Below are positions 7,129 through 45,998 of a stretch of 64,000 nt of DNA, in pieces (positions within the stretch are counted from its first letter, which is position 1; each line of letters starts with the position of its first letter). The stretch is from a virus. The stretch lies in the IMG/VR virus record IMGVR_UViG_3300028920_000043, positions 1 through 64,000 of that record. One strand, 5' to 3'. A program made the position numbers and the translations under genes. The notes under the pieces are model-generated. The model ran no database searches and was not told the DNA's origin. It saw only the letters and a list, made by a program, of their open reading frames with translations.

Positions 7129-8231
7129 AATCCCATATCCTCCACCAGATACTTTTTGCATACATCAATAAATGGTTTCTTTGTCAAAGGACATATTCCT
7201 TGCTTCTGCACCAGCTCTGATACAGCACCGATCTTTGCTTCTAAGGATTCGGTACAATCATTCAGTTCTTTCTTTAAGAATATTTGTCTCTGGCGTCCTT
7301 TTGTAAGATTGGCACTTATAGATTGCAGTCTTGAAAAGTGCTCAATCTGTTTATTCAATGTCTCAAAGTTTTCTAATACTAAAGCCAATCCACCTATGAC
7401 TCCCCCAGTGAATTGGAATTCTTCTGCAAGCTGATCACTTTTCTTTTTTGCCTCAATGATGGAGCTTAACTGACGAGCCTTACCAATTATACTCGCCGCA
7501 TCAATAATATACTTGCCCAAGGATACAATCAGCGTCTTGATCCTTATTGAATCCTCACGATGTCTTTTTAATAATTCGCGTATTGCACGAAGTTGTCTCA
7601 ATCGTTTTCTCTTACTTTGGATTTGTACCAACTTCTTGTCAATCTCAGTGGCCTTCTCTCTTATGTTTGTCAAACGCGGCAATGGTTCAAGATCAATATC
7701 CAACTCCGCCTTTTGCTTCTCAAGCATGTCTTGATCTTGTTTCAGATGCCGCAACTTGAGCACCGCTTGACGTGAGCCTTCCAGGATCATATTGATACCG
7801 GGAATCAATGATGTCACTATCTTCGCTGAATCCTGCTCGCTTTGCGAAACAATAAAGTGAGATTCAAACTGATCAATGAAGTTAAGGCGCTTGACCACCT
7901 TCTGACCAAAATCTATCTCTTTCAATCCATGCACGTCAGAGGCTTCTTCAGGACACGATTGACCAACATTGGTAAATGGTTTCTTGCCAACCGTGTACTT
8001 ATTTATGCCCTTTCCTTTTTCCCACTTCACTTTATTATCAATAGAAACCATAGATGATTTCTCACCATGAGTAACGAAATCAATACCGCGAGTGTTGAAA
8101 GCAAAATCACGCAGAGCACGAAAGAAATTGGTTTTACCAGAATCACTGTCACCGAAGATGACATTAATTCCGCCCATCTCTAATTCAATGTTCTTTAATG
8201 ATCGATAGTTTTTAATCTTTACATTGTCCAT
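7125..8231 (-). CDS. Rad50/SbcC-like ABC ATPase, N-terminal half
   Basis: IKNYRS, Walker A GDSDSGKT, Q-loop DQF, coiled coil ending in hook-like CPLT. Confidence 0.85.
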   Translation of the reverse strand: MDNVKIKNYRSLKNIELEMGGINVIFGDSDSGKTNFFRALRDFAFNTRGIDFVTHGEKSSMVSIDNKVKWEKGKGINKYTVGKKPFTNVGQSCPEEASDVHGLKEIDFGQKVVKRLNFIDQFESHFIVSQSEQDSAKIVTSLIPGINMILEGSRQAVLKLRHLKQDQDMLEKQKAELDIDLEPLPRLTNIREKATEIDKKLVQIQSKRKRLRQLRAIRELLKRHREDSIRIKTLIVSLGKYIIDAASIIGKARQLSSIIEAKKKSDQLAEEFQFTGGVIGGLALVLENFETLNKQIEHFSRLQSISANLTKGRQRQIFLKKELNDCTESLEAKIGAVSELVQKQGICPLTKKPFIDVCKKYLVEDMGL

Positions 8232-8506
8232 TACTGCACCCGTGTCTTGGTACCGCCGTAATATTCCTTCCGCCGTTTGTTGAGATCAATCTTTTCTTTC
8301 TGCGCGAAGAACTCACAAACTTTAATAACTCCCTCCGGCAGTATGATATAGGTCCCCTCACTCAATACCAACTCAACGTTCATCTGCAGAAGCTTGAACA
8401 CGTTCATCTGGAGACGACCATAAGGTATTCCCAAGAACTTAGACAGCTCAGGAATAGTGACAGGGTACTGCGCTTCTATTGGATTTCCTACTATCGGGAA
8501 TTTCAT
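8231..8506 (-). CDS. Small HTH-like protein
   Basis: VTIPELSKFLGIP HTH-like start; GGAGGAG RBS. Confidence 0.5.
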   Translation of the reverse strand: MKFPIVGNPIEAQYPVTIPELSKFLGIPYGRLQMNVFKLLQMNVELVLSEGTYIILPEGVIKVCEFFAQKEKIDLNKRRKEYYGGTKTRVQ

Positions 8507-8535
8507 TTTCTTCTCCTCCCTAAAATCTAAAGGAT

Positions 8536-8575
8536 AAAAAGTGGGCTGGATGATTTACCCGGAACCACCCAGCCC
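8536..8575 (-). terminator. Intrinsic terminator downstream of recA
   Basis: Minus strand: GGGCTGGGTGGTT/AATCATCCAGCCC stem followed by ACTTTTT. Confidence 0.65.
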
Positions 8576-8623
8576 TTATGCGAGATGCTCTGTTTGGAGG
8601 AGGCCGAACAGCTCGCGTTTTTT

Positions 8624-9628
8624 CTATTCCATTATTGCATCAAGAATCAACTTCTTATTCTTTTCCTTTCTCAATACGCTACTACATACCTCCAGTCTCG
8701 TACTTCCGATGTTCTTACCTTTATAATAAAATCCCTTCCCTTTTCCTTCGGTCTTTTCATCGAATACACGATAGTCAACTGCCGCCCTCAACATCTCCTC
8801 TTCTTTTTCGATTCCAATATTGGGCGTCACCAACCAATTGAAGCTCTTCTTTCTTCCCGATATCTTGTTCTTGAGTAGCTTGCACGTAACGAACTCGCTG
8901 TTCTCGAATCCGCGTACTCGTTTAGCATCACTACCACTCTTGCTCAACCGTGCTCTGATGGCTGACCGAAACTTTATTGACTGACCGCCCGGTGTCGTTT
9001 CAGGATTTCCGAATACCACACCGATCTTCATTCTTGTTTGATTGATAAAAATACCAACTATCTTTTTTCTGCGGATGAGCCCCAACGTCATCCGCAGGGC
9101 CTGTCCGATCTTTCTCGGCACCACGCCCATATGATGATCGCCAACCTCTCCCATCAGCTCTGCTTCCGGAACCATTGCGGCAATAGAATCTATAACAACA
9201 CATGATATTGGCAAACTGCCCAATGCATCAATCGTTAGATTCCAGCCCTGTTCCAAGCTCTCTGGTTGCGATAACAAGAAATGCTTCCTTGATATATCGC
9301 ATAAGTTGGCGGCATATCCCAGGTCAATGACATCCTCATAATCCAAATACAACGCTTTCTTTGTTGGATCCGCACGTTGACACGCACTAACGAATTCCAA
9401 TGCCAATGTAGTCTTCCCTGACTCCTCCGGTCCAAATATCTCCATGATTGTTCCGCGGGGCAATCCACCCAGGAACGCATCCCACTGCGCCAGTCCCGAT
9501 GGATAAAAATCATAGCGTTTGCGCTCAGTTATGATAGCATTCTGATACTTCTTATTCAGCAATTCCAAAACTTGTGCTTCAGTCTTTCCATCAAACTCAC
9601 TACCTTTTTTCTTTTTCTTTGCCATCAT
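8624..9628 (-). CDS. recA: RecA recombinase
   Basis: GGLPRG..EIFGPEESGKTT, VIDSIAAMVP, FINQTRMKIGVVFGNPETTPGG. Confidence 0.97.
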   Translation of the reverse strand: MMAKKKKKGSEFDGKTEAQVLELLNKKYQNAIITERKRYDFYPSGLAQWDAFLGGLPRGTIMEIFGPEESGKTTLALEFVSACQRADPTKKALYLDYEDVIDLGYAANLCDISRKHFLLSQPESLEQGWNLTIDALGSLPISCVVIDSIAAMVPEAELMGEVGDHHMGVVPRKIGQALRMTLGLIRRKKIVGIFINQTRMKIGVVFGNPETTPGGQSIKFRSAIRARLSKSGSDAKRVRGFENSEFVTCKLLKNKISGRKKSFNWLVTPNIGIEKEEEMLRAAVDYRVFDEKTEGKGKGFYYKGKNIGSTRLEVCSSVLRKEKNKKLILDAIME

Positions 9629-10141
9629 TTACCTTTGAGTTAAGATTCTAATCAAATCCGAATCCCAGCAGGCTATGCCGACCGCCAAGGCGTCATACTG
9701 CGCTTCTCGCTGTTTGGCATTGCCCTTCACATTTACATGAAAGAACTTCTTCACCGCCTTCTCGATCTGCAACTTGCTTGCATTGTTAGAGCCAGCAACG
9801 ATCTTCTTGATCTCCTGTGGCGTGCGATATGTGCAAGGCAAATCACGCGCCTCTGCTACCGTTGCTACGCATCCCTTCGCAATGCCCAGCCCTTTCGATG
9901 CCAATGCCGATTGGGATCCAGTCGGAACTTCAATGCATAGGCCTTGAATCTTATGCTTGTCGATGACACGTAACAAGCGCATACCAAGATAACGAGCTCT
10001 GTCCATATCGTCCTCAGATACACGTATCTTTTTATTCTTGGCCTTCTTCGTCTCGATCCAACCAGCGGCAATCGGTTTCTTTGCCTTGTCGAGTACGGCA
10101 TAGCCTGTGAGAGTAAAACTCGGATCAAGTAAAAGAATCAT
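9629..10141 (-). CDS. RuvC-like Holliday junction resolvase
   Basis: LDPSFTLTGYAV, IEVP, PQEIKK...NASK, YDALAV. Confidence 0.85.
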   Translation of the reverse strand: MILLLDPSFTLTGYAVLDKAKKPIAAGWIETKKAKNKKIRVSEDDMDRARYLGMRLLRVIDKHKIQGLCIEVPTGSQSALASKGLGIAKGCVATVAEARDLPCTYRTPQEIKKIVAGSNNASKLQIEKAVKKFFHVNVKGNAKQREAQYDALAVGIACWDSDLIRILTQR

Positions 10142-10143
10142 GT

Positions 10144-11457
10144 TTATCTTCTGCCGCGTTTGGTTTTCTTCTTCGCCGTCTTCTTTGCTGTTTTCTTTTT
10201 GGCTGTCTTCTTCGCGGCTTTCTTTTTCGCAACCTTCTTCTTGGCCGTTTTCTTTTTCTTTGCTGCTTTCTTCTTTCGTGTCGGAGCTGGTTCTTCTTCC
10301 TCTTCTTCGAGATCATCGTCTAAGTCATCATCCAGCTCTTCCTCTTCTTCTTCTTCCTCCTCTTCATCCTCGAGATCATCCTCTAGAGCGTCTTCGTCTT
10401 CTTCGTCTTCTTCGAGATCGTCCTCATCTTCCGACTCTTCTTCATCATCCGATTCTTCCTCTTCCTCTTCCTCATCATCCAGCTCTAGGTCGTCATCAAG
10501 CTCTTCTTCTTCTTCTTCGTCCTCATCTTCTTCTGTTTCTTCTTCGTCTTCCTCCTCCTCTTCGTCTTCGGACTCTTCCTCATCGTCGTCCTCCAGCTCT
10601 TCGTCTTCGTCTTCTTCCAACTCTTCCTCTTCGTCTTCTAGATCGGCATCTTCCTCGAGATCATCCTCTTCCTCTTCCTCTTCCTCTTCCGACTTCTTCT
10701 TTTTCTTTGAAGCTTTTTTCTTTTTCTTTTTCTTGGATGATGATTCATCGTCCATATCCATATCATCCTTCATCTCGTCATCCTCAAAGAAGTCTTCGCC
10801 TTCCTCCGGTGCGGTGTCACTGTCCTTCCGCAGACGTTCAAGCTCGCGATCCAAGAACTCTTCCATGTCGTTCTTGTGTTTGTTATATCGCTTGGTGAAT
10901 GCTTCATTCTTCGCGACCATTGAACGTTCACCGAGCAGTGGGATGAGCGTGAGCTTTTGCTTCTGCTCATCCGCACAGGTCACCACCCAATCACGCGAGA
11001 GGCAAATCTTACGCGCCTTCTCAATTGATATATTGTGTTCACTGGCGAATGTCTTGATTGCTTCATTGAGCGCCCTCATCTTGTCAGGGCCGTAGCCCCA
11101 TTTCATAATGCGACCGATTCTCTCCTTCTTTGATTTGCCCTCTTCTATTGTTTCATCATACACAGGCTTCCAAGCCTTTCGTGCATGATAATCCTGTTCC
11201 TTGAGCTGGCCAACCAAAGCCACCATTGCACCAAACTTGCGGGATACCGGAGAATCATCCCCAAGTGGGCATTCAGCGCAGAACTCATCCTCTGAGCAAC
11301 GGACGCTTCTGTTTTTGATCTTGTTGTAGTGCATATCATAGACAACAGGACGCGCCGTGAGCAATCGAATACGATCCACCAATCCTACTTTTGCTTTGTA
11401 GAATTTCGTATAGGTGCCGACTGCACTGTCATCACCATAATCCACTTTCCGTGCCAT
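10144..11457 (-). CDS. gp32-like single-stranded DNA-binding protein with a very long acidic tract and H1-like basic tail
   Basis: RIRLL..P..MHY..C..CAECP (Zn-type SSB pattern); more than 130 D/E-rich residues; KKTAKK repeats; adjacent to ruvC/recA. Confidence 0.6.
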   Translation of the reverse strand: MARKVDYGDDSAVGTYTKFYKAKVGLVDRIRLLTARPVVYDMHYNKIKNRSVRCSEDEFCAECPLGDDSPVSRKFGAMVALVGQLKEQDYHARKAWKPVYDETIEEGKSKKERIGRIMKWGYGPDKMRALNEAIKTFASEHNISIEKARKICLSRDWVVTCADEQKQKLTLIPLLGERSMVAKNEAFTKRYNKHKNDMEEFLDRELERLRKDSDTAPEEGEDFFEDDEMKDDMDMDDESSSKKKKKKKASKKKKKSEEEEEEEEDDLEEDADLEDEEEELEEDEDEELEDDDEEESEDEEEEEDEEETEEDEDEEEEEELDDDLELDDEEEEEEESDDEEESEDEDDLEEDEEDEDALEDDLEDEEEEEEEEEELDDDLDDDLEEEEEEPAPTRKKKAAKKKKTAKKKVAKKKAAKKTAKKKTAKKTAKKKTKRGRR

Positions 11458-11470
11458 ACTTCAAATCCTC

Positions 11471-11513
11471 CTGGTTCAAAAGGTTTCACGCATGAAAGCT
11501 AATCGACTAGCTC
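11471..11513. repeat. Dispersed palindrome, copy 1 (core 11483-11498)
   Basis: CTGGTTCAAAAG-GTTTCACGCATGAAAG-CTAATCGACTAG. Confidence 0.9.
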
Positions 11514-12015
11514 AATTTGAAAACTCACCGCCCGACCAGCTTATATTATGAAGATTGCAAAACAGTTTTATTTGCTGTGTTGATCCTTGCTTCCGTATCT
11601 CACAATCCTTAACAATGTTTCTTGCCATTTCTTCAAGCGCTTTTAATTTCGATAGCGCCATCTTCAGCTCATCCAGCTCTCGCACCTCCCCTCTCATCAA
11701 ATAATCAGCCATGTCTTCCTTCTCTCTCTTCGTATGCTTCAAACGTATTTCTTTATGCTCACGAAGAAGAACCTCGCGTCCTATTTTTAATATTGATTTC
11801 TTATCCTCATATTTGTGTTCCGCCAATTGTTTATGCTTAAGAACATAGTTGAGAATATTTGTTGCACGAGAATGGGCCGATATGACCTCATAAACTTTTT
11901 CTCCAAACTCCTCAACTGTTGCTTCATTGAGATCTTGAAAAAGGCGGACCTTCGATATGGTCTGTAGTTTGTTTATTACTTTCTGCTCTGCAGAAGTCCA
12001 ATGACGATCCGCCAT
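11512..12015 (-). CDS. Helical coiled-coil protein, possibly a UvsY-like recombination mediator
   Basis: All-helical, 167 aa, next to the SSB-like gene; function inferred from context only. Confidence 0.4.
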   Translation of the reverse strand: MADRHWTSAEQKVINKLQTISKVRLFQDLNEATVEEFGEKVYEVISAHSRATNILNYVLKHKQLAEHKYEDKKSILKIGREVLLREHKEIRLKHTKREKEDMADYLMRGEVRELDELKMALSKLKALEEMARNIVKDCEIRKQGSTQQIKLFCNLHNISWSGGEFSN

Positions 12016-12051: not shown

Positions 12052-13242
12052 TTAACCGCCAGTGACTTCCTTGCGCGCCAAACGAATCAGATCACTGACA
12101 TCCGGCTTGACCTGTTTCGCCATAGCCACGATCTCTTTCCGCACGTCAAAGCCTTTCATTGTTTTGGTTTTCTCGCTGATCTTGAGCGTCACTATAACGC
12201 TGTCACCGGATACCTTAACCGACACGTCATCCGGAAGCTCCATTGAAGGAATGCTGGCAAAGAAATTGCCTCCAGCTGATTTGACTTTTCCCTTCTTGGC
12301 TTTGTCTGCCGCTTCTTTCTGCTTTCCCTTCGGCAGTTTCATAATTGATTGGGCAACACTTACGCTGACATTCTCCTTCTTCAGAAGATCGCGTACATTG
12401 GAATCCATCTTGGCATCGTCCAATAAGGACAATGTACTGCTCACGCGAGATTCTGAACGTCCCACCATAAGAGCCAACTGACGCTGACTCTTTACATACT
12501 TCTTGGACAAAGCCCTTTTGTATGCCTCAGCACGTTCAAACTCATTGAGATCTTCCCGTGCATCATTGGAAATCAATGATGACATAAATCTCTGACCCTC
12601 CGAGTTCCGATCTTTTACTACCTGCACCAGGATTGTCTTGTGTCCCAACTTCTTCCAGGCAGTAGCACGGCGCTCGCCATCCACCATTTCTCCCTTGGTG
12701 TTAATGGTAGGCTTATTTATAATGCCGCCTTCCTCTTTGATGGCGCTCATTAGATCCTGGAACTTCTTTGTGTCGGTTCTCAGATTGGTGCTGGTTTTCA
12801 GAATATCGGAAATCTTCACTTCAACGATTGTATCCGGTTCGTACTTACCAGCACTTTTTTGCTTCGCGGATTTCTTCTTCGCTGTTTTCTTCTTCGCTGA
12901 TGATTTTGAGGGTGGAGGTGTTTCCTCTTCTTCTTCCTCCTCTTCATCACCATCAGACTCTTCATCACCATCAGATTCTTCTTCATCTTCGTCCACTGCG
13001 GCGTCAGGAAGATTCTCATCGTCCAGAAGATCGTCATTGGCATCATCCAACCCACTCAAATCGTCATCGAATTCTTCTTCTGTTTCTTCTTCGTCATCGA
13101 TATCTTCCAGATCGATATCTTCCTTCTCCTTTTTTGCTTTCTTCTTTGCTGTTTTCTTCACGACCGTCTTTTTCTTTGCAACTTTCTTCTTCGCTGTTTT
13201 CTTGACCGGCTTTTTCTTTGCAACTTTCTTCTTTGTTGCCAT
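12052..13242 (-). CDS. ParB/Spo0J-like CTPase and HTH protein with N-terminal Lys-rich and acidic extension
   Basis: VDGERR arginine patch, NDAREDL, EFERAEAY, HTH SQRQLALMVGRSESRVSSTLSLL; about 135-aa disordered N-terminus. Confidence 0.88.
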   Translation of the reverse strand: MATKKKVAKKKPVKKTAKKKVAKKKTVVKKTAKKKAKKEKEDIDLEDIDDEEETEEEFDDDLSGLDDANDDLLDDENLPDAAVDEDEEESDGDEESDGDEEEEEEEETPPPSKSSAKKKTAKKKSAKQKSAGKYEPDTIVEVKISDILKTSTNLRTDTKKFQDLMSAIKEEGGIINKPTINTKGEMVDGERRATAWKKLGHKTILVQVVKDRNSEGQRFMSSLISNDAREDLNEFERAEAYKRALSKKYVKSQRQLALMVGRSESRVSSTLSLLDDAKMDSNVRDLLKKENVSVSVAQSIMKLPKGKQKEAADKAKKGKVKSAGGNFFASIPSMELPDDVSVKVSGDSVIVTLKISEKTKTMKGFDVRKEIVAMAKQVKPDVSDLIRLARKEVTGG

Positions 13243-13300: not shown

Positions 13301-13771
13301 TCATGCACTGGATATATTCATCACTCTCCTTTCCCCGTGCAATGATGTACCAGAAATGTTTTCAAGCTTATACCGTTCAGTTTCCATGTTTCCATATTTG
13401 TCAATGATATCTACTGTCTCAACCCAAGCCAAACGATCCCAAGAATTGACCTGTATGTCCTCACAAAAAGCAGTGCTGGGATTTCCAGTGGTCAGCATCC
13501 CTCGTTCAAAGACATTCTGTTTTCTGTAGGTATGCCTGAGATAAGCGCGCATCATACAGAAAACTAAATATGTTTCCAGGTTTGATTTCTTAGGTTTGTG
13601 ACGCTCAAGCAATCGGCGTTCCAATACCTCAAGCCAGAGCTGTTGATACAAATCTTTATCATGTTTCTTTTTCTTTTTCGACAAGACAATCTGACACGCC
13701 CTGTCCACCGTCCGCCTCTCATCCTCTGTCATACCATTGAATCCTTTCTTATTCCCATTCCCGGCTTTCAC
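13301..13771 (-). CDS. Sigma70 region-2-like protein
   Basis: DLYQQLWLEVLE..LERHKPKKSNLETYL resembles sigma region 2; no region-4 HTH; the true start may be near 13732. Confidence 0.5.
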   Translation of the reverse strand: MKAGNGNKKGFNGMTEDERRTVDRACQIVLSKKKKKHDKDLYQQLWLEVLERRLLERHKPKKSNLETYLVFCMMRAYLRHTYRKQNVFERGMLTTGNPSTAFCEDIQVNSWDRLAWVETVDIIDKYGNMETERYKLENISGTSLHGERRVMNISSA

Positions 13772-13837
13772 GCATGAAAGCTAATCACCTAGCTCTATCT
13801 TAAAACTTTCACGCATGAAAGCTAATGAACCAGCTCT
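13764..13837. repeat. Dispersed palindrome, copies 2 and 3 (cores 13765-13780 and 13806-13821)
   Basis: Two CTTTCACGCATGAAAG cores 41 bp apart. Confidence 0.9.
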
Positions 13838-20040: not shown

Positions 20041-21423
20041 TTAGATCGAAAATATATCTTGATACTGACTGGTATCGTTTGAACGTTTATCCAATACTTC
20101 ACAATAACTATCCGATATGTCTGCCAGATCATCCTTTGCTTTATCTGCATCATTGCCCGACAGTGATCCAATGAAAACCGAGTATAATGCAAAGCCCTCC
20201 TTTCCTTTAATTGATTTGAATGACCGCTTGTATTCAGCGCTCATGCTACAATAACCATCCGTTATGAAAAGCACGTCTGGTGCTTTCGTATCTGACTCAT
20301 ACTCCTTAATGATATTGACCGAACGATTCAACGGTTGAGTGAATTCTGTTCCTCCATGCGGCATGAACTCAATTAACTGCATCAATGCCTCACCGTCCAC
20401 AATACCATTCTGTATGATCTGCTTATCAAATACTATTCCACCATTGAACAGGATAATATGATAGTCTCTCCTTTCCATAATGCAAGTTCTATGAATCATC
20501 AACGCTACTGCCTTCGCCCACTCGAATCTACGATTGGCAGTCATGGAGGAACTGACATCCATACAAACAACTACCGGGCCACGTGCCAAATCATCAACAG
20601 CACCGCGCAATTTATACTCCATCAAGCGCTTCTCAATGAATGATAAGTAAAACTCCTTGCGCCGTCCATTGCGTAACTTGACCAACTCTGTAGGAAGCAA
20701 TCGTGATATGTTGTCACCGATGCCGACCTCATAGACCTCATCCACTCCGTGACTCAACTTTGATTGAGATGTCTTCTTTGCTGTTTCCCGAAATCGTCCC
20801 GCCAAATCAATTATAGCTTTCAACTCATCATTATCTTTGATGAGTTCAACAAGTTTACTCGCTTGTTCCATTGTAACATTCTTCTTTTCTAACGGCTCTT
20901 TACTATCTCCCGCAAGCAATCCAAATGCAATCTTGAGGCTCTCAACCTCCTTCTCTGCTTCTTTTATTGCATCATTGATTGCCACGCGAACCATTGCCGC
21001 TGTGTCAGATGTTGCATCATTCAAATCTTCTTTTCCTGATGCTATCTGATCCAATGCTTTGCTTGCCTCATTGCCTCCTTTCTTATTCATTCCAAACTTA
21101 TCCATAATTTGTTTTGCTAATGACAAAGCACCCGCGGCGGATACACGTTGATCCATACGAGATGCTCGGCGCATCTTTTCTGCCTTGTCTGACATTCTAA
21201 ATCCTTCGATTATTTTAGAATGCTTTTCGGTTCCGGAATAGCCTTTATTCGGCGCTGGATTTGCTTTGTATAGCGAACTGTAAAAGTCCTGCAACATATT
21301 ATCCAGATCACCATACGTTGAATTCTCACGCACTATATCTGCTTCCGGAAACTCATCCAAGGACTCTTTACACGCCATTACATCAAAATCATCACAGCGA
21401 ATATATAAGTCCTCAGTTTTCAT
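20041..21423 (-). CDS. VWA-domain protein (ViaA-like)
   Basis: ISRLLPTEL, GPVVVCMDVSSSM (MIDAS), GGTEF, FITDG. Confidence 0.85.
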   Translation of the reverse strand: MKTEDLYIRCDDFDVMACKESLDEFPEADIVRENSTYGDLDNMLQDFYSSLYKANPAPNKGYSGTEKHSKIIEGFRMSDKAEKMRRASRMDQRVSAAGALSLAKQIMDKFGMNKKGGNEASKALDQIASGKEDLNDATSDTAAMVRVAINDAIKEAEKEVESLKIAFGLLAGDSKEPLEKKNVTMEQASKLVELIKDNDELKAIIDLAGRFRETAKKTSQSKLSHGVDEVYEVGIGDNISRLLPTELVKLRNGRRKEFYLSFIEKRLMEYKLRGAVDDLARGPVVVCMDVSSSMTANRRFEWAKAVALMIHRTCIMERRDYHIILFNGGIVFDKQIIQNGIVDGEALMQLIEFMPHGGTEFTQPLNRSVNIIKEYESDTKAPDVLFITDGYCSMSAEYKRSFKSIKGKEGFALYSVFIGSLSGNDADKAKDDLADISDSYCEVLDKRSNDTSQYQDIFSI

Positions 21424-22547
21424 TGATCCGCCTCCACCAATACCGTTGAAAGCATTTCCAGTTTGTCCTGAATGTATTCTTCCAGCTTCTTCAGATCCTC
21501 ACTACTTGAATAACGTTTCTTGGCGTCCCTCAACTTCTTCCTCAGCTCTTTTACTTTTTCAATCACTTCAGTGCATTCCGTTTGGACTTTCAAATCAGCA
21601 TTATTCAATATAGATTGAATGTTGTTTGAAATTTCCAATGCCACTTTACCTGCAGGATTGACCGACTCCATAATCACATCAACTACTAATGCAATCTGCG
21701 CTTCTTCCTTCCATAACGCATCCTTTAGAATCATAAGATCACTGACTTGGACTGCGTGATTGCCATTGAGGTATGCATTGGCCTTGATAAGTTTGATCGC
21801 TTGACGCCATTTCCTATCTGACGCCACTATTCCTTTCTGCATCAAATTAATTCTAATATCCTTCACTTTCTGGAACACGTCATTGCTGATACTCACTTTA
21901 TTCTCCACGTCCTTCTGACAACGTTCCAACTCCATCAATGAGATCTTCGGACCCGATGACGGATCAACATCGCTCATCTGTAACAGTGTCAAGAAATCAT
22001 CGTCACCAATATAATGTACCACGTACTTAAGAGCAAATCTGTCAAACATCGCTCCCAACTCTTCGCCTTCCGGAAACTCATTACTTGCCGCCACCATTGT
22101 TTGTAATGGCGTGTCCAGAATGTTTGTACCATTCTCGAACTTGCGCTCATTCATCTGGCGCAGTAATGAATTGAGTATTGCTGAATTGGCCTTGTAGACC
22201 TCATCAAGGAACGCAATAGTAGCGTCCGGCAATTTGTTTTCAATCTTGCGCTCATACTTATCATGCTCCAATCCCTTTAACGAGATCGGCCCATTTACCT
22301 CCTCTGGTGTGGAGTACTTGGTCATTAACTGCTGAAAGAACTTCGCGTCCTTAATGCACAAGCAACCTGCCAATGCCAACAATGATTTTGCTGTACCAGG
22401 AGGCCCCACCATAAGCATATGCTCTCTTGCCAATAAAGCAACGAGAAAGCCGCGTATCTCGTCCTCTCTGGAAATCAATACACTCTCCAACCATTCCTTT
22501 ATCCTGCTCATCTTGATTCCATGAGCATTCATCTTTTCCTTTGCCAT
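21420..22547 (-). CDS. MoxR/RavA-family AAA+ ATPase
   Basis: GPPGTAKS, FLDEVYKANSAILNSLL, ASNE.P, FDRF, SDRKW. Confidence 0.92.
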   Translation of the reverse strand: MAKEKMNAHGIKMSRIKEWLESVLISREDEIRGFLVALLAREHMLMVGPPGTAKSLLALAGCLCIKDAKFFQQLMTKYSTPEEVNGPISLKGLEHDKYERKIENKLPDATIAFLDEVYKANSAILNSLLRQMNERKFENGTNILDTPLQTMVAASNEFPEGEELGAMFDRFALKYVVHYIGDDDFLTLLQMSDVDPSSGPKISLMELERCQKDVENKVSISNDVFQKVKDIRINLMQKGIVASDRKWRQAIKLIKANAYLNGNHAVQVSDLMILKDALWKEEAQIALVVDVIMESVNPAGKVALEISNNIQSILNNADLKVQTECTEVIEKVKELRKKLRDAKKRYSSSEDLKKLEEYIQDKLEMLSTVLVEADQ

Positions 22548-22623
22548 TGTTCTGCCTCCTCACATTATCAATCCGGGTTTTGATTTCAACTAACTTTCTG
22601 AGCCTCTCCGCTTGATCCGCCAC

Positions 22624-22932
22624 TTACTCATCTCCTTCCTCATCCCAATCATCTCCTTCCTCATCCCAATCATCTTCATCCTCTTCGCTTTCCTTCTCAT
22701 CAATCAATGCCTCATCCGAATCCTCCAACTGCTCTCTGAGCCGATCCAGATTGGGATCGTTTGAAAGAAAGCCATGACTGTTAGTGTGATAGATCTTGAG
22801 ATGATCAATGAGATAAGCGCGCGTCATACCTTCAATACCCAAACCGCTCACCGCCTTCTCAATCAACTCAATCACTTCACCCAGCTTCTCCTGCGCGTCA
22901 TCAATGCATTCTATTCTCTCGTCCTTTGTCAT
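22624..22932 (-). CDS. Hypothetical protein with repeated DDWDEEG tail
   Basis: 21-bp tandem repeat at about 22628-22680. Confidence 0.6.
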   Translation of the reverse strand: MTKDERIECIDDAQEKLGEVIELIEKAVSGLGIEGMTRAYLIDHLKIYHTNSHGFLSNDPNLDRLREQLEDSDEALIDEKESEEDEDDWDEEGDDWDEEGDE

Positions 22933-23054
22933 CGTCCTTCACCTCCTTTCCTGGTTTTTGTTTTCCTTGCACGTTTACGCCGCATCTTCAACACGTGCTT
23001 CTTGTGCGCCTCACGATCCTCAACCAACTCAAGCACTTTCGTTTTCCGTTTCAT
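22929..23054 (-). CDS. Small basic protein (41 aa), absent from the ORF track
   Basis: AGGAGGCAGAGC-ATG; MKRKTKVLELVEDREAHKKHVLKMRRKRARKTKTRKGGEGR; the stop overlaps the next ATG. Confidence 0.6.
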   Translation of the reverse strand: MKRKTKVLELVEDREAHKKHVLKMRRKRARKTKTRKGGEGR

Positions 23055-23067
23055 GCTCTGCCTCCTT

Positions 23068-23121
23068 TTCAAATTGATCCAGTTCATTAGCTTTCATGCG
23101 TGAAAGCTTTTTAACTAGCTC
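23068..23121. repeat. Dispersed palindrome, copy 4 (core 23091-23106, opposite orientation)
   Basis: CCAGTTCATTAG-CTTTCATGCGTGAAAG-CTTTTTAACTAG. Confidence 0.9.
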
Positions 23122-23158
23122 TGCCTCCTTATTAAGATTAATGACTTAAATCATTTAC

Positions 23159-23362
23159 TTACTCATTCCGACCAACACTCCTACCATGCTCATCTTGCCA
23201 CCATTCTGTTGAAGAGTGTTCTGCCTGTAAGTATTCCGAAACATCGTACTCCAATGTTTCCAAGACATCCATTACATTGGTATTGGTCTCTTCAGCATAG
23301 GTAATTATACTTTCACTGATCTTCTTAATCATATCCTTTTTATTAATGTCTTTCGCCACCAT
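23159..23362 (-). CDS. Hypothetical protein
   Basis: AGGAGGCAGAACA-ATG leader. Confidence 0.6.
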   Translation of the reverse strand: MVAKDINKKDMIKKISESIITYAEETNTNVMDVLETLEYDVSEYLQAEHSSTEWWQDEHGRSVGRNE

Positions 23363-23387
23363 TGTTCTGCCTCCTCAAAATAAAATA

Positions 23388-23579
23388 TTAATGAAAATCA
23401 AAACCAAGGATTGCTGCGTCATTCAAAATCATGTTATTGTAAGCAATGATTTCTTTCTCAGTACAATCCTTGAAGACTTCTTCTTCTGCTTTATTGTACT
23501 GATCTGAAAAATCAATATGATTCTCATCCACGCTTATCCTGCTAAAGATTTCCTTTTTAATATCTGCAGGACTTCTCAT
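23388..23579 (-). CDS. Hypothetical protein
   Basis: GAGGAG RBS before MRSPAD. Confidence 0.55.
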   Translation of the reverse strand: MRSPADIKKEIFSRISVDENHIDFSDQYNKAEEEVFKDCTEKEIIAYNNMILNDAAILGFDFH

Positions 23580-23638
23580 TTTATATCTCCTCAAAATAAA
23601 ATGAATGTTTACGCGCCGGGTACGCGGGTTTATTGATC

Positions 23639-23881
23639 TTACAGAAACTGAATGTCTGTCATCTTCTCAACAATGTCCAGGAAAGAAATAGCGTCCTGTT
23701 CAGTTTCAAAATCATAGGACGTCTCCCTACCACTCTCTTCGTGATAGTGAGCAACTACATATGTAAACTTTCCATCATCATCATACTCCACTATGGTACT
23801 TATGCATCCTTCCTTCTCGCGCTTGCATACCATCCGCGCCTTTCCAATCGCTTCCAATTCATTCTTTTTCTCAAACAACAC
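23639..23881 (-). CDS. Hypothetical acidic protein, first gene after the hammerhead
   Basis: GAGGAGGTG RBS at 23886-23894. Confidence 0.6.
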   Translation of the reverse strand: MLFEKKNELEAIGKARMVCKREKEGCISTIVEYDDDGKFTYVVAHYHEESGRETSYDFETEQDAISFLDIVEKMTDIQFL

Positions 23882-23907
23882 AATTCACCTCCTCTAAAAA
23901 ATGTTAT

Positions 23908-23980
23908 ATGGCTGTCTCATCAGTACCGCGGCACCACCCGCGATATATGAGCGCCCAAACAAGCGCGCTCATTTCAACAA
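23908..23980 (-). ncRNA. Type II hammerhead ribozyme
   Basis: Minus strand: TTGTT-GAAA-TGAGCGC(loop)GCGCTCA-TA-TATCGCGG(GTGGTG)CCGCGGTA-CTGATGA-GACAG-CCAT. All core nucleotides and three stems are present; loop I can pair with the 3' GCCAT (pseudoknot); predicted cleavage between 23946 and 23945. Confidence 0.9.
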
Positions 23981-24039
23981 GAAGGATTTGAAGTATTTCT
24001 TTTTCCTATTCAACAGGTATCCGATAACGCCTTCAACGT

Positions 24040-24583
24040 TTCGGTGATCAGGAATCCTTGTTGTAATACGTCCAGGCTGAATTGACTTACATGGCTAACA
24101 TGATGATTGCTGTCCGTGACCGCCGCGCCGATCACAATTAAATCTTCTTCGCGGTTTATTTTGAATCATCATAAAACGCCAACGCTCGACCTACTCACAC
24201 CAAAATGCCGCTCTCACTTTCTCGTGGGTGCTTTCGCATCATTCAAAACAAGGCTTGCTAATCCAACCCCTGCCCGACCTTGGAGGACGTGTCCCTATTC
24301 TAGTCTCCTACTTCCTTACTCGCCGTTGTCAATGTATTGTGGGCCGCGCTTACCCAATCGCTTCGCTTCGCGTTTTTTGCCATCGGCATTTATTGACAAC
24401 CATCAGCTTTGGTTTTCAGATTTCGATACCGTCCAACTTCGTCTAGCGCTGTCCGCCGCGCTGCATCGAGCAACTCCCAACTTGGCTTTGTGTTTTTAAT
24501 GTGCGTTTTCCGCGCCGCTTGCACTTGCGCGCTCGCCTTGTCTTCGTTGCTTATATTGTTGTCAATGATCACCTTCCCGCTTC
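24040..24583 (-). ncRNA. Candidate large structured ncRNA (~540 nt)
   Basis: No credible ORF; 5' GGTGATCA pairs with 3' TGATCACC; several 7-9-bp internal helices; GCAA and GAAA tetraloops and G-U pairs favour the minus strand; TATGAT -10-like box just upstream. Confidence 0.55.
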
Positions 24584-24731
24584 AATATAATCATACCTTG
24601 TAAATGAACTAGATCCACCTTAAAATCATAAAAATTTCCGGACATAATAATAATGTATAATGAAAATATTAGGAATTTCTTCCTAAAATATTCTATATAA
24701 ACAGTTAGGACAAAATACCGGAATTTGAAGG

Positions 24732-24755
24732 AAAAGGTGTGTTTTCACACCTTTT
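24732..24755 (-). terminator. Intrinsic terminator at the end of the replication operon
   Basis: AAAAGGTGTG-AAAA-CACACCTTTT overlapping the stop codon of the primase Zn-finger gene. Confidence 0.65.
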
Positions 24756-25371
24756 TAGATACCCGTGTTTTTCGGGTGTTTTGACGTGTTTTGCCGCGTT
24801 TGGGGACGGGATCATACATACCAAATATAGCACGGGAATACTGTAGGAATCGCCGCACTCGCTTGGGAGTTACTCTCATGGATTCAAATAAGTCTTCCAC
24901 CTCCTCCAACAAGTATAAGTATATCGAACCAAGATAATATCCTACTCTCTTCTCATGCTTTACATACAGTTTCAATACTTCTTGGATTACTTCATGTTTC
25001 AATGTCTCTTGGATTTCATTGTAGTAAGTTTTGATAGGCTGGTATTCTGGATACTCTGATTTCTCTACTTTCAATAAATCATCTTTTGATATCTTGACGC
25101 CTGCCCACTTTGCGGCCTTTCTCAATGCATCCTTGAATTCCAATCCATCCTTTATCTGAATTAGATTTATTACATCACCACGCTTGCCGCATCCAAAGCA
25201 ATTGAAACGAGAACCATCCGCAAAGATAGAAAACGATGCTTCCGCTTCTTGATGGAACGGGCATCGTATCTTCTGCTTGCCAGCGTTTGATTTTATCTCT
25301 ATGCCGTAGCGCTCAAGGGCTTGGATCACTGACAAGCGATCCTTGATTCTTCTTATTTGATTTTCTAACAT
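24745..25371 (-). CDS. DnaG-type CHC2 zinc-finger protein (no TOPRIM domain)
   Basis: CPFHQE...SF.I...FNCFGCGKRGDVI...F.DAL..AA; only 208 aa. Confidence 0.82.
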   Translation of the reverse strand: MLENQIRRIKDRLSVIQALERYGIEIKSNAGKQKIRCPFHQEAEASFSIFADGSRFNCFGCGKRGDVINLIQIKDGLEFKDALRKAAKWAGVKISKDDLLKVEKSEYPEYQPIKTYYNEIQETLKHEVIQEVLKLYVKHEKRVGYYLGSIYLYLLEEVEDLFESMRVTPKRVRRFLQYSRAIFGMYDPVPKRGKTRQNTRKTRVSKKV

Positions 25372-26855
25372 TAGTCTTCTGAAGCAAAGGAATCGTCATC
25401 TTCAAATAATTGTTTCTCAATATCTTTTTCCAAGGAGTCTGCATCAGCTTTCTTCAGCTCCTTATCCACTCCCAACTTCGCGTTTACTTCTTCGTCTTTC
25501 AATATATCAGGACCGACCAAGTTAGTTGAGAAACGCTGTTGCGTGAATCTACCCTTCAAACATATATCTCCACCACGATTCTTTGCCAGGCCTATATTAA
25601 CCAATCCGGATGGTCTATGTGCCTCTCCTACGAATAACCATGGCATTGCATCCGCTGTTCTTTCTGCAATAGATGTCTCACTGAAATCATCCATTAAATA
25701 AAACCCACCACGATCCCGCGCTCTTCGTTTACCGTCCCTACTGATCTGCCATGCTGACAATATCGGTATTCCTTTTCCTTCGTTGAAGCTCAATGCCAAC
25801 TCTTTTGTATCCTCTAATAATCCTGACTGTTCATAACGCTTGTTCCCTGTTACCTTTTTGGGAGCTACCAACTGCAAATAATCAATGAATACCGCATCAA
25901 TGTTTATTGAGTAATGACAATAGTTCAGCATATCGCGTATAGACCATACTGTCGTATTTGCTGGTGCTTGCCATATGATAAACTTACCACGTTTCATATC
26001 CATCCAACTTCTTATTGTTCTCTTATATCTTTTATATTCCTTCGGCATCAATTCGCCTTTACTCAATCGTGAATAATTGACACCAATCGTTCTTTGTCTT
26101 ATATAGTTTGAATGACAGCACTGTAGCCTTCGCTTCACTTGATCCTTGGTCTCTTCCAATGTTACAAATAAAACATTATGGCCTTCCGCTACAGCATTGC
26201 GTGCCACATTAATCATGGTAGTTGTTTTTCCTTCAGATGTGAACGCTCCCAGTAGCCATAGATTACTCGGATATAATCCTCCTGTAAGATTATCCCAAAG
26301 CTGAATACCGGTCGGTATGTGTTTCTTATGTTGTTTAAGCAGATCTTCATACTCGTCTATACTATTTACAAAGTCATCATCTGTATCTATCAATTGATCT
26401 TCTTGTGGAGACTGTCCCCGAATATCCATAAGCCCCTCGGTCATTAACCGCTCAGCCTTATCCGGATCCTTATCCTCCTCATTAGCCATTACTACTTCAT
26501 AAAGTTTCTTATTGATTAAGCGCCGTTTGTATTCTCGCTTAAGCGCATCAAGTAAAAACTCAAACTGATTACTTGACAGCTCGTCTATCTTTGCCAGCTC
26601 TGTGAAAAAGATAGTCAGCTTCTCACGCGTCTTTGGCTTCTTTATCGTTCCCAAATACGTCTCGAAACTTTCAAGATCCATATGCTTACCTGTACGCCTG
26701 TGGTAATTTCGGATCTTATTGAATACCGCTCTTGCTATCTTTGAATAAAAATACTTTGAGCTTATTCCTTTTAATCCTGCTAACCGATGGGGTTGCTCCA
26801 ATAATCCAAATATTATTTGAAGCTCTATCATCGTGAAGTCGTGTTCATCCGCCAT
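25371..26855 (-). CDS. DnaB-like replicative helicase
   Basis: IPTG...TGGL, Walker A AFTSEGKTT, LEE, IDYLQL, QISR, KNRGG. Confidence 0.92.
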   Translation of the reverse strand: MADEHDFTMIELQIIFGLLEQPHRLAGLKGISSKYFYSKIARAVFNKIRNYHRRTGKHMDLESFETYLGTIKKPKTREKLTIFFTELAKIDELSSNQFEFLLDALKREYKRRLINKKLYEVVMANEEDKDPDKAERLMTEGLMDIRGQSPQEDQLIDTDDDFVNSIDEYEDLLKQHKKHIPTGIQLWDNLTGGLYPSNLWLLGAFTSEGKTTTMINVARNAVAEGHNVLFVTLEETKDQVKRRLQCCHSNYIRQRTIGVNYSRLSKGELMPKEYKRYKRTIRSWMDMKRGKFIIWQAPANTTVWSIRDMLNYCHYSINIDAVFIDYLQLVAPKKVTGNKRYEQSGLLEDTKELALSFNEGKGIPILSAWQISRDGKRRARDRGGFYLMDDFSETSIAERTADAMPWLFVGEAHRPSGLVNIGLAKNRGGDICLKGRFTQQRFSTNLVGPDILKDEEVNAKLGVDKELKKADADSLEKDIEKQLFEDDDSFASED

Positions 26856-29314: not shown

Positions 29315-29360
29315 GAGCTAGTTGGTTAGCTTTCATGCGTGAAAGCTTTTGAACTAGTTC
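29315..29360. repeat. Dispersed palindrome, copy 5 (core 29330-29345)
   Basis: CTAGTTGGTTAG-CTTTCATGCGTGAAAG-CTTTTGAACTAG. Confidence 0.9.
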
Positions 29361-36778: not shown

Positions 36779-36828
36779 TTTCAAATTGGACTAGTTCATT
36801 AGCTTTCATGCGTGAAAGCTTTTGAACC
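36779..36828. repeat. Dispersed palindrome, copy 6 (core 36803-36818)
   Basis: TTTCAAATTGGACTAGTTCATTAG-CTTTCATGCGTGAAAG-CTTTTGAAC; extra half-arm CTAGTTCATT at about 36762. Confidence 0.9.
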
Positions 36829-45937: not shown

Positions 45938-45998
45938 GGCTTTCACGCATGAAAGCTTTTGAACTAGCTCTGTCTTAAAACTTTCACGCATGAAAGCC
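45938..45998. repeat. Dispersed palindrome, copies 7 and 8 (cores 45940-45955 and 45981-45996)
   Basis: Two cores 41 bp apart; linker CTAGCTCTGTCTTAAAA nearly identical to that of the 13.8-kb pair. Confidence 0.9.

Follow-up and report, generated by a model that had tools for sequence, protein, structure and literature searches.

A type II hammerhead ribozyme between a gene-free stretch and a small gene in a viral genome from IMG/VR

Type II hammerhead ribozymes are already known by the thousands, and a single further case adds little on its own. Among the type II hammerheads of Rfam family RF02276 (Perreault et al., 2011; PMC3088659), the pseudoknotted representatives cleave rapidly in vitro, and the clustered copies of phages and prophages cut polycistronic RNA both in vitro and in E. 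coli (PMC3088659). Prophage hammerheads flank single genes or short gene blocks (PMC3088659), and activity was shown for three type II hammerheads in Desulfovibrio (PMC8782182). Their role in phages is in general still unproven and remains an open question (PMC6765202). The ribozyme described here shares with the RF02276 representatives the core, the permutation, the pseudoknot, the phage setting and the position before the ribosome-binding site (RBS) of a small gene; it differs from them in being a single copy, in the approximately 770 nt of gene-free sequence on its 5' side, in its AUA cleavage triplet and in its G10.1.U11.1 pair.

The window, as we call the 64,000-nt stretch of DNA that was analysed, comprises positions 1-64000 of a 111,210-nt virus contig in IMG/VR whose completeness is estimated at 80%. 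An initial annotation had placed a complete type II hammerhead at 23908-23980 and had named a cmscan search with hammerhead models as a way to check it. This search returned Hammerhead_II (RF02276) on the minus strand at 23979-23906, in agreement with the annotated position to within 2 nt, and with 41.1 bits, where the gathering score is 37. The match covers the full length of the model (positions 1-66 of 66), was recovered again in a sensitive rescan of 22500-25500, and has an E value of 5.8e-5 when the window is compared with all 4227 families and of 2.4e-8 when this one family is compared with the 111-kb record. RF02276 is the sole Rfam family above its gathering score in the 64-kb window; the four further Rfam 15 matches in 22500-25500 (E 2.3 to 8.7) all lie far under their own gathering scores, and cmscan found no Rfam family in the remaining 47 kb of the record. 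The segment 23906-23980 is consequently a type II hammerhead ribozyme of a well-described family; its parts and the features of its surroundings are collected in Table 1.

Table 1. Features of the ribozyme locus (window coordinates)
Feature	Position	Strand	Basis
Small ORFs of 68 and 67 aa downstream of ORF80; clear Shine-Dalgarno sequence only at the 67-aa ORF	23159..23594	minus	ORF list
ORF80, acidic 80-aa protein, first gene 3' of the ribozyme	23639..23881	minus	ORF list
Shine-Dalgarno sequence AGAGGAGGUGA, 6 nt ahead of the GUG start	23885..23895	minus	sequence
Type II hammerhead	23906..23980	minus	Rfam RF02276 match and base-by-base reading; made up of stem II (5' strand), GAAA, stem III with its loop, A17, stem I with its loop, CUGAUGA, stem II (3' strand) and pseudoknot tail
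3' tail GCCA(U), pseudoknot partner of UGGU in loop I (23936-23933)	23908..23912	minus	sequence; tail and loop also in the Rfam consensus
Predicted scissile bond, 3' of A17 (23946); downstream product from U 23945	23945..23946	minus	A17 in the cmscan alignment and hammerhead chemistry (inference)
Gene-free stretch from the Zn-ribbon primase-like gene to the ribozyme	23981..24744	minus	six-frame translation; gap list
Segment complementary to 23988-23971 (covers the 5' strand of stem II and GAAA), possible competitor helix	24053..24067	minus	inverted repeats I5 and I9; used in the MFE fold
Conserved non-coding block 2, 66% identical to L092 12429-12527; holds AAGGUCGG.C.GGGGUUGG and GAUGCGAAAG	24231..24327	minus	blastn of the gaps
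Conserved non-coding block 1, 64% identical to L092 12307-12424; two hairpins with loops kept and stems changed	24411..24527	minus	blastn of the gaps; alignment and consensus fold
10-bp hairpin with A and U tracts, overlaps the stop codon of the Zn-ribbon gene	24732..24755	minus	inverted repeat I11; L092 shows a hairpin and then U's at the corresponding site
208-aa protein, DnaG CHC2 zinc ribbon only; last gene of the conserved replication block	24745..25371	minus	Pfam PF01807

Read base by base, the motif contains all bases of the catalytic core (C3 U4 G5 A6 N7 G8 A9, G12 A13 A14, the A15.1-U16.1 pair and an H17 that is not G), and its helices are free of mismatches. The GAAA formed by G12 A13 A14 A15.1 occupies 23975-23972, the CUGAUGA core 23923-23917, and A15.1-U16.1 is the pair of A 23972 with U 23947. 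[quoted passage not shown] Stem II is open, being formed by the 5' and 3' ends of the motif (UGUU 23979-23976 with GACA 23916-23913), and comprises 4 bp, or 5 if 23980.23912 is counted. In the pseudoknot, UGGU 23936-23933 pairs with GCCA 23912-23909, to which G 23937.U 23908 may be added, giving 4-5 pairs. Both hairpins are formed in the RNAfold structure of an 86-nt piece (z -2.4). The complete core, the 8-bp stem I and the pseudoknot between loop I and the 3' tail that the initial annotation had described were all borne out by this reading; its 5 bp for stem II hold if 23980.23912 is included, whereas its 7 bp for stem III have to be corrected to 8. The cleavage site that it had placed at 23946/23945 coincides with A17 (23946) in the cmscan alignment, and the 2',3'-cyclic phosphate on the upstream and the 5'-OH on the downstream product are what hammerhead chemistry would lead one to expect.

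For comparison, viral contigs were scanned for exact occurrences of a 15-mer that spans the end of the core and the tail, which yielded 87 stretches; a simple descriptor applied to these found 56 type II hammerheads in 37 loci. This comparison set is sound: in the 15 loci that were checked, 28 copies were confirmed by Rfam with 37.9-60.1 bits, a range in whose lower part the window copy falls. In stem lengths and pseudoknot the window copy is ordinary when set beside the 56 other viral copies, 51 of which have a pseudoknot of 4-6 bp, a feature that is usual in the family and not universal. Its cleavage triplet, AUA, is found in none of the 56 (51 carry GUC), and its 10.1/11.1 pair is G.U and not G-C; C11.1 is present in 54 of the other copies, and the two with U11.1 (L031 and L073) both pass Rfam at 48-49 bits. 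The G10.1-C11.1 pair and the GUC triplet, absent from the window copy, are typical of RF02276, not defining for it. AUA satisfies the NUH rule, with cleavage slower than for GUC, and U11.1 is still able to pair with G10.1. AUA and U11.1 probably slow the reaction, and we expect from its sequence that the window ribozyme is active, perhaps at a reduced level.

On its 3' side the window copy fits the pattern of the gene-linked viral copies. Among the 55 copies of the comparison set that have a downstream ORF, 28 have its start at most 60 nt past the 3' end of the ribozyme, with a median of 59 nt from cut to start codon and a median ORF of 85 aa; the corresponding values here are 64 nt and 80 aa. 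This gene-side layout agrees with the published picture of prophage hammerheads (PMC3088659). The 5' side departs from the set. The other viral copies lie, with few exceptions, directly behind the stop codon of an upstream ORF (median gap 1 nt), and at least 400 nt of ORF-free 5' sequence is found in none of the 56, whereas the window copy abuts no upstream stop codon and lies 409 nt from a doubtful 60-codon ORF and 765 nt from the Zn-ribbon gene. The linkage of the ribozyme with ORF80 is therefore standard, and the sole unusual side is the 5' one. Motif, strand, geometry and gene-side likeness to other phage copies can all be read directly from the DNA. The window hammerhead is a lone copy, while several of the sampled phage loci hold two to eight; on one IMG/VR viral contig (L087), Rfam recognizes eight of type II in a stretch of about 4.3 kb (7402-11682).

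The pseudoknot tail ends 12 nt 5' of the Shine-Dalgarno sequence at 23895-23885, in keeping with the initial placement of the ribozyme just upstream of the RBS of ORF 23881-23639. ORF80 and the two small ORFs that follow it have no Pfam or PHROGs match, and ORF80 found no relatives among 5.8 billion proteins; nothing about these ORFs bears on timing, and their designation as early-type genes was not upheld. An unmasking of the RBS by cleavage was considered and rejected. In partition-function calculations, its accessibility is 0.42 in the cut product and 0.42-0.43 in precursors of 131-296 nt, so that no translational effect is visible in silico. A CCUUCU stretch that immediately precedes stem II on its 5' side is capable of base pairing with the Shine-Dalgarno sequence of ORF80. 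A 19-nt purine-rich direct repeat (24015-23997 and 23880-23862; 79%) brackets the hammerhead and the RBS, its second copy being the start of ORF80; it is possible as the footprint of an insertion, but the repeat is at chance level, and we made no use of it. Just past the small ORFs, at 20041-22547, lie a MoxR-type AAA ATPase (PF20030) and a VWA-domain protein.

All identifiable genes near the ribozyme lie on the minus strand, which puts the ribozyme on the transcribed strand as had been proposed, and the large non-coding region announced on its upstream side is present as well. This region (23981-24744; approximately 770 nt) is the longest gene-free stretch of the record and consists of an AT-rich stretch and, after it, some 600 nt of richer composition that are interrupted by stop codons in every frame. 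In the order of transcription, the genes ahead of it encode an RFC-like clamp loader, PolA fused to UDG (29295-26866), the helicase DnaB (26855-25371) and the 208-aa Zn-ribbon protein (25371-24745). In the fusion protein, a family A DNA polymerase, an N-terminal domain of the uracil-DNA glycosylase superfamily (PF03167, residues 28-169) is followed by exonuclease and polymerase domains. The CHC2 zinc-ribbon protein is the sole primase-like gene product of the record, in whose six frames (80% complete) no Toprim or DnaG core domain was found at E values up to 1. The hairpin that overlaps the stop codon of the Zn-ribbon gene is likely an intrinsic terminator. On its minus strand, the gap contains no good sigma-70-type promoter; the candidates are weak (8/12 matches) and lie nearly all in 24713-24583. 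That one transcript leads from the gap through the ribozyme was assumed in the initial annotation, and such promoters lend this assumption no support.

A protein search with the DnaB helicase returned two relatives (50% and 45% identical), the first of which is encoded on a 76-kb IMG/VR contig, L092. Its proteins follow the same order as those of the window phage, with identities of 63% for the RFC-like protein, 54% for PolA, 50% for DnaB and, over nearly the full length, 34% for the Zn-ribbon protein (L092 11513-12106), which is equally short. After the Zn-ribbon gene, L092 has the layout of the window: a hairpin with U's, an AT-rich stretch, about 540 nt of gene-free sequence and an RBS. The genes past the gap are not common to the two phages. 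When the two gaps were compared by blastn, we found two conserved blocks (Table 1) and, past them, a third shared piece, a 10-mer; the element as a whole extends over 24188-24527 in the window and 12307-12623 in L092, with approximately 83 extra nt in the former (24410-24328) and a pyrimidine-rich insert in the latter (12528-12613). The shared blocks lie in differing reading frames and are therefore not protein-coding. The lack of common genes past the gap associates the element with the replication block and not with the following genes, and since L092 keeps the element without a hammerhead, the ribozyme is no integral part of it. Neither a hammerhead nor another known ribozyme was found in L092, where a long and very stable hairpin (12714-12763; z -5.5) occupies the junction before the RBS.

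Two hairpins in block 1 suggest that the element is a folded RNA. In one of them, the window has CGCGC[AAGUGCAAGCG]GCGCG where L092 has CCCUC[AAGAGGAAGCG]GAGGG, and in the other, GCGC[GGCGGACA]GCGC stands against GGAC[GGCGGACA]GUCC, so that the changes in both stems are paired. For the two sequences, the consensus fold energy is better than that of 199 of 200 column shuffles, but the compensatory pairs (14 versus 11.2 +/- 2.7 in column shuffles) show no excess, and the leader taken as a whole has no advantage in fold energy over shuffles (z +0.71). The element could also act as DNA, for instance as an origin beside the replication genes. The upstream non-coding RNA proposed in the initial annotation is supported in part: the stretch holds conserved blocks, shared with L092 in frames that are not kept, and its folding into an RNA structure is suggested at most. 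The pairwise comparison shows a conserved non-coding element upstream of the ribozyme, known from these two sequences. It matches no Rfam family at E values up to 10. For the Zn-ribbon protein, neither a protein search nor single-protein scans of viral contigs returned close relatives, and searches for the locus by blastn of phage GenBank entries and by a scan of metagenomes with an RFC alignment, as well as DNA-pattern scans for the element in viral contigs (two scans) and in genome contigs (one scan), were blank or gave chance matches. No further members of locus or element were found in the viral, metagenome and genome collections scanned, and by the outcome of these searches the phage is nearly an orphan.

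Three other explanations of the gap were discarded. It is not the decayed Toprim half of a primase, given that it holds no DnaG core or Toprim signal and that the short Zn-ribbon protein of the relative aligns nearly end to end. Nor does it appear to code for a small protein: the 60-codon ORF (24572-24390) has no RBS, and the shared blocks are in differing frames. A second ribozyme that would excise a leader was sought, and no other match was found at E values up to 10 in 22500-25500, nor any elsewhere in the genome.

The reading that we favor, and hold to be rather probable, is that the hammerhead works and serves as the 5' module of a unit made up of ribozyme, RBS and small gene, and that the RNA leading from the gap to ORF80 cleaves itself at 23946/23945. 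Minus-strand RNA passing through the gene-free stretch would fold into the hammerhead and cut itself between these two nucleotides. Through the type II permutation, the cut falls between two closed hairpins. The upstream product would end in the 8-bp stem III hairpin plus an A with a 2',3'-cyclic phosphate, and the ORF80 message would start with a 5'-OH flush on the 8-bp stem I hairpin, 64 nt ahead of the start codon. In bacterial RNA decay, terminal hairpins hinder 3' exonucleases and nucleases that depend on the 5' end; hence, both RNAs released by the cut should be protected, and the leader should have a fixed length of 64 nt. The likely effects would be an uncoupling of the small-gene message from the upstream RNA, a single fixed 5' leader and exonuclease-protected ends on both products. 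Processing of RNA beside a small gene, the ordinary role proposed for phage copies, is probably what the ribozyme does here as well. Three points stand against so simple a picture, namely the rare AUA and U11.1, the competing helix discussed below, and the fact that transcription through the ribozyme, its cleavage in vivo and any influence on stability and expression are inferred. In addition, the relative L092 manages without a hammerhead, and there is no homologous copy by which the conservation of this particular ribozyme could be tested.

Two known systems resemble this arrangement. The RNase III hairpins between the early genes of phage T7 likewise provide a cut at the RNA level between parts of a unit and products capped by hairpins, and at the same junction the relative L092 carries a long hairpin; the difference is that here the RNA would cut itself, leaving a 2',3'-cyclic phosphate and a 5'-OH. 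The L092 hairpin would fit a site of RNA processing or end protection at this junction, and that RNase III cleaves it is our guess. In RiboJ-type insulators, which combine a hammerhead and a hairpin before the RBS, self-cleavage strips variable upstream RNA and leaves a fixed leader headed by a hairpin, as it would here; these insulators were engineered from a satellite-RNA hammerhead, whereas insulation by natural phage copies is putative.

That the motif is a chance look-alike of a hammerhead is scarcely conceivable: its score lies merely 4 bits over the cut-off, but both E values given above speak against chance, and so do the pseudoknot and the gene-side spacing, which are typical too and which the Rfam score does not fully reward. 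Rather unlikely is an inactive or barely active relic without a present role, perhaps brought in with ORF80 from another phage. The core bases, the two mismatch-free 8-bp hairpins and the pseudoknot are all intact, which would not be expected from drift; the AUA triplet obeys the NUH rule and U11.1 pairs with G10.1 according to general hammerhead biochemistry, although their rarity, the Rfam score in the lower part of the range, the competing upstream helix, the missing hammerhead in L092 and the lone copy, compared with two to eight in several sampled phage loci, could all be taken as signs of decay. The competing helix, 24067-24053 with 23988-23971, is a possible rival of the weak stem II in the folding model, whose minimum is -63.7 kcal/mol and -54.1 when the hammerhead is enforced, in a calculation that includes neither the pseudoknot nor tertiary terms. 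One might read it as a switch in which 24067-24053 captures GAAA and the 5' strand of stem II, so that cleavage would occur only if a factor, the temperature or the speed of transcription prevented the helix. To this we give very little credence: the complementarity to the 5' strand of the ribozyme is 11/12 and the MFE fold uses the helix, but we estimate that about one such repeat is to be expected by chance in the 941-nt region, homologues for a test of conservation do not exist, and the energy model leaves out the pseudoknot.

A further possibility turns the view to the 5' side. The main job of the ribozyme might be 3'-end formation for a conserved non-coding RNA (about 600 nt) that belongs to the replication module, with release of the ORF80 message as a by-product; we regard this as unlikely. 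It would make sense of ordered blocks that are shared with L092 in frames that are not kept, although the flanking proteins are merely 34-54% identical, of the terminator hairpin and AT-rich stretch that lie ahead of the element in both phages, of the association of the element with the replication genes (those past the gap not being shared), of the two hairpins with kept loops and changed stems, and of the consensus fold energy that beats 199/200 column shuffles. There is also a precedent among the RAGATH RNAs. On an unrelated viral contig, a RAGATH-24 RNA (RF03049; 81.6 bits) precedes a type II hammerhead by 80 nt, both on the minus strand (L018 3017-3265), and is thus, like the window element, a non-coding element directly 5' of such a ribozyme; the window element differs in that it has no Rfam match, is known from two phages only and has a relative without a ribozyme. 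Indeed, L092 retains the element without any ribozyme, the conserved blocks stop about 200 nt short of the hammerhead, the leader as a whole folds no better than shuffles (z +0.71), its compensatory pairs are at shuffle level, the spacing of ribozyme and ORF80 matches that of gene-linked phage copies, and the element could work as DNA, as an origin next to the replication genes for example.

In its widest form, which we consider speculative and on balance improbable, the gap would code for a novel phage RNA associated with a replication module of unusual make-up, composed of the RFC-like clamp loader, the UDG-PolA fusion, DnaB and a zinc-ribbon-only "primase" in a record without a Toprim domain. 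This RNA would need a defined 3' end, provided by the hammerhead here and by a long hairpin cut by a host nuclease in the sister phage; if so, the ribozyme would be a lineage-specific, protein-independent substitute for a processing site. The conserved gene-free element and the contrast between ribozyme and hairpin are more interesting than the ribozyme itself, on the basis of two sequences only. The two related phages offer a natural comparison, with a common replication block and non-coding element, and with a ribozyme in one and a long hairpin in the other at the junction before unrelated small genes. Should RNA prove to be processed at both junctions, one could ask with this pair whether phage hammerheads merely replace nuclease sites. 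As a lone copy, the window ribozyme would also lend itself to simple reporter assays of how self-cleavage affects the stability of a message.

A palindrome of 18 nt, GCTTTCAYGCRTGAAAGC, is present in 15 copies in the 111-kb record, all of them intergenic; possibly it represents a phage-specific module with terminator, operator or promoter function. In the window it is found at 23090-23107, 29329-29346, 11482-11499, 13764-13822, 36802-36819 and 45939-45997, and past it, in record coordinates, at 64465-64482, 74447-74464, 74512-74529, 92537-92554, 92602-92619, 110241-110258 and 110397-110414. The block that reaches from PolA to the small ORFs is flanked by one copy on each side. Flanking sequences (ctagttca ... 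tgaacta) lengthen the palindrome to about 40 nt, and on one side caatttgaaa(c/g)tttc often follows.
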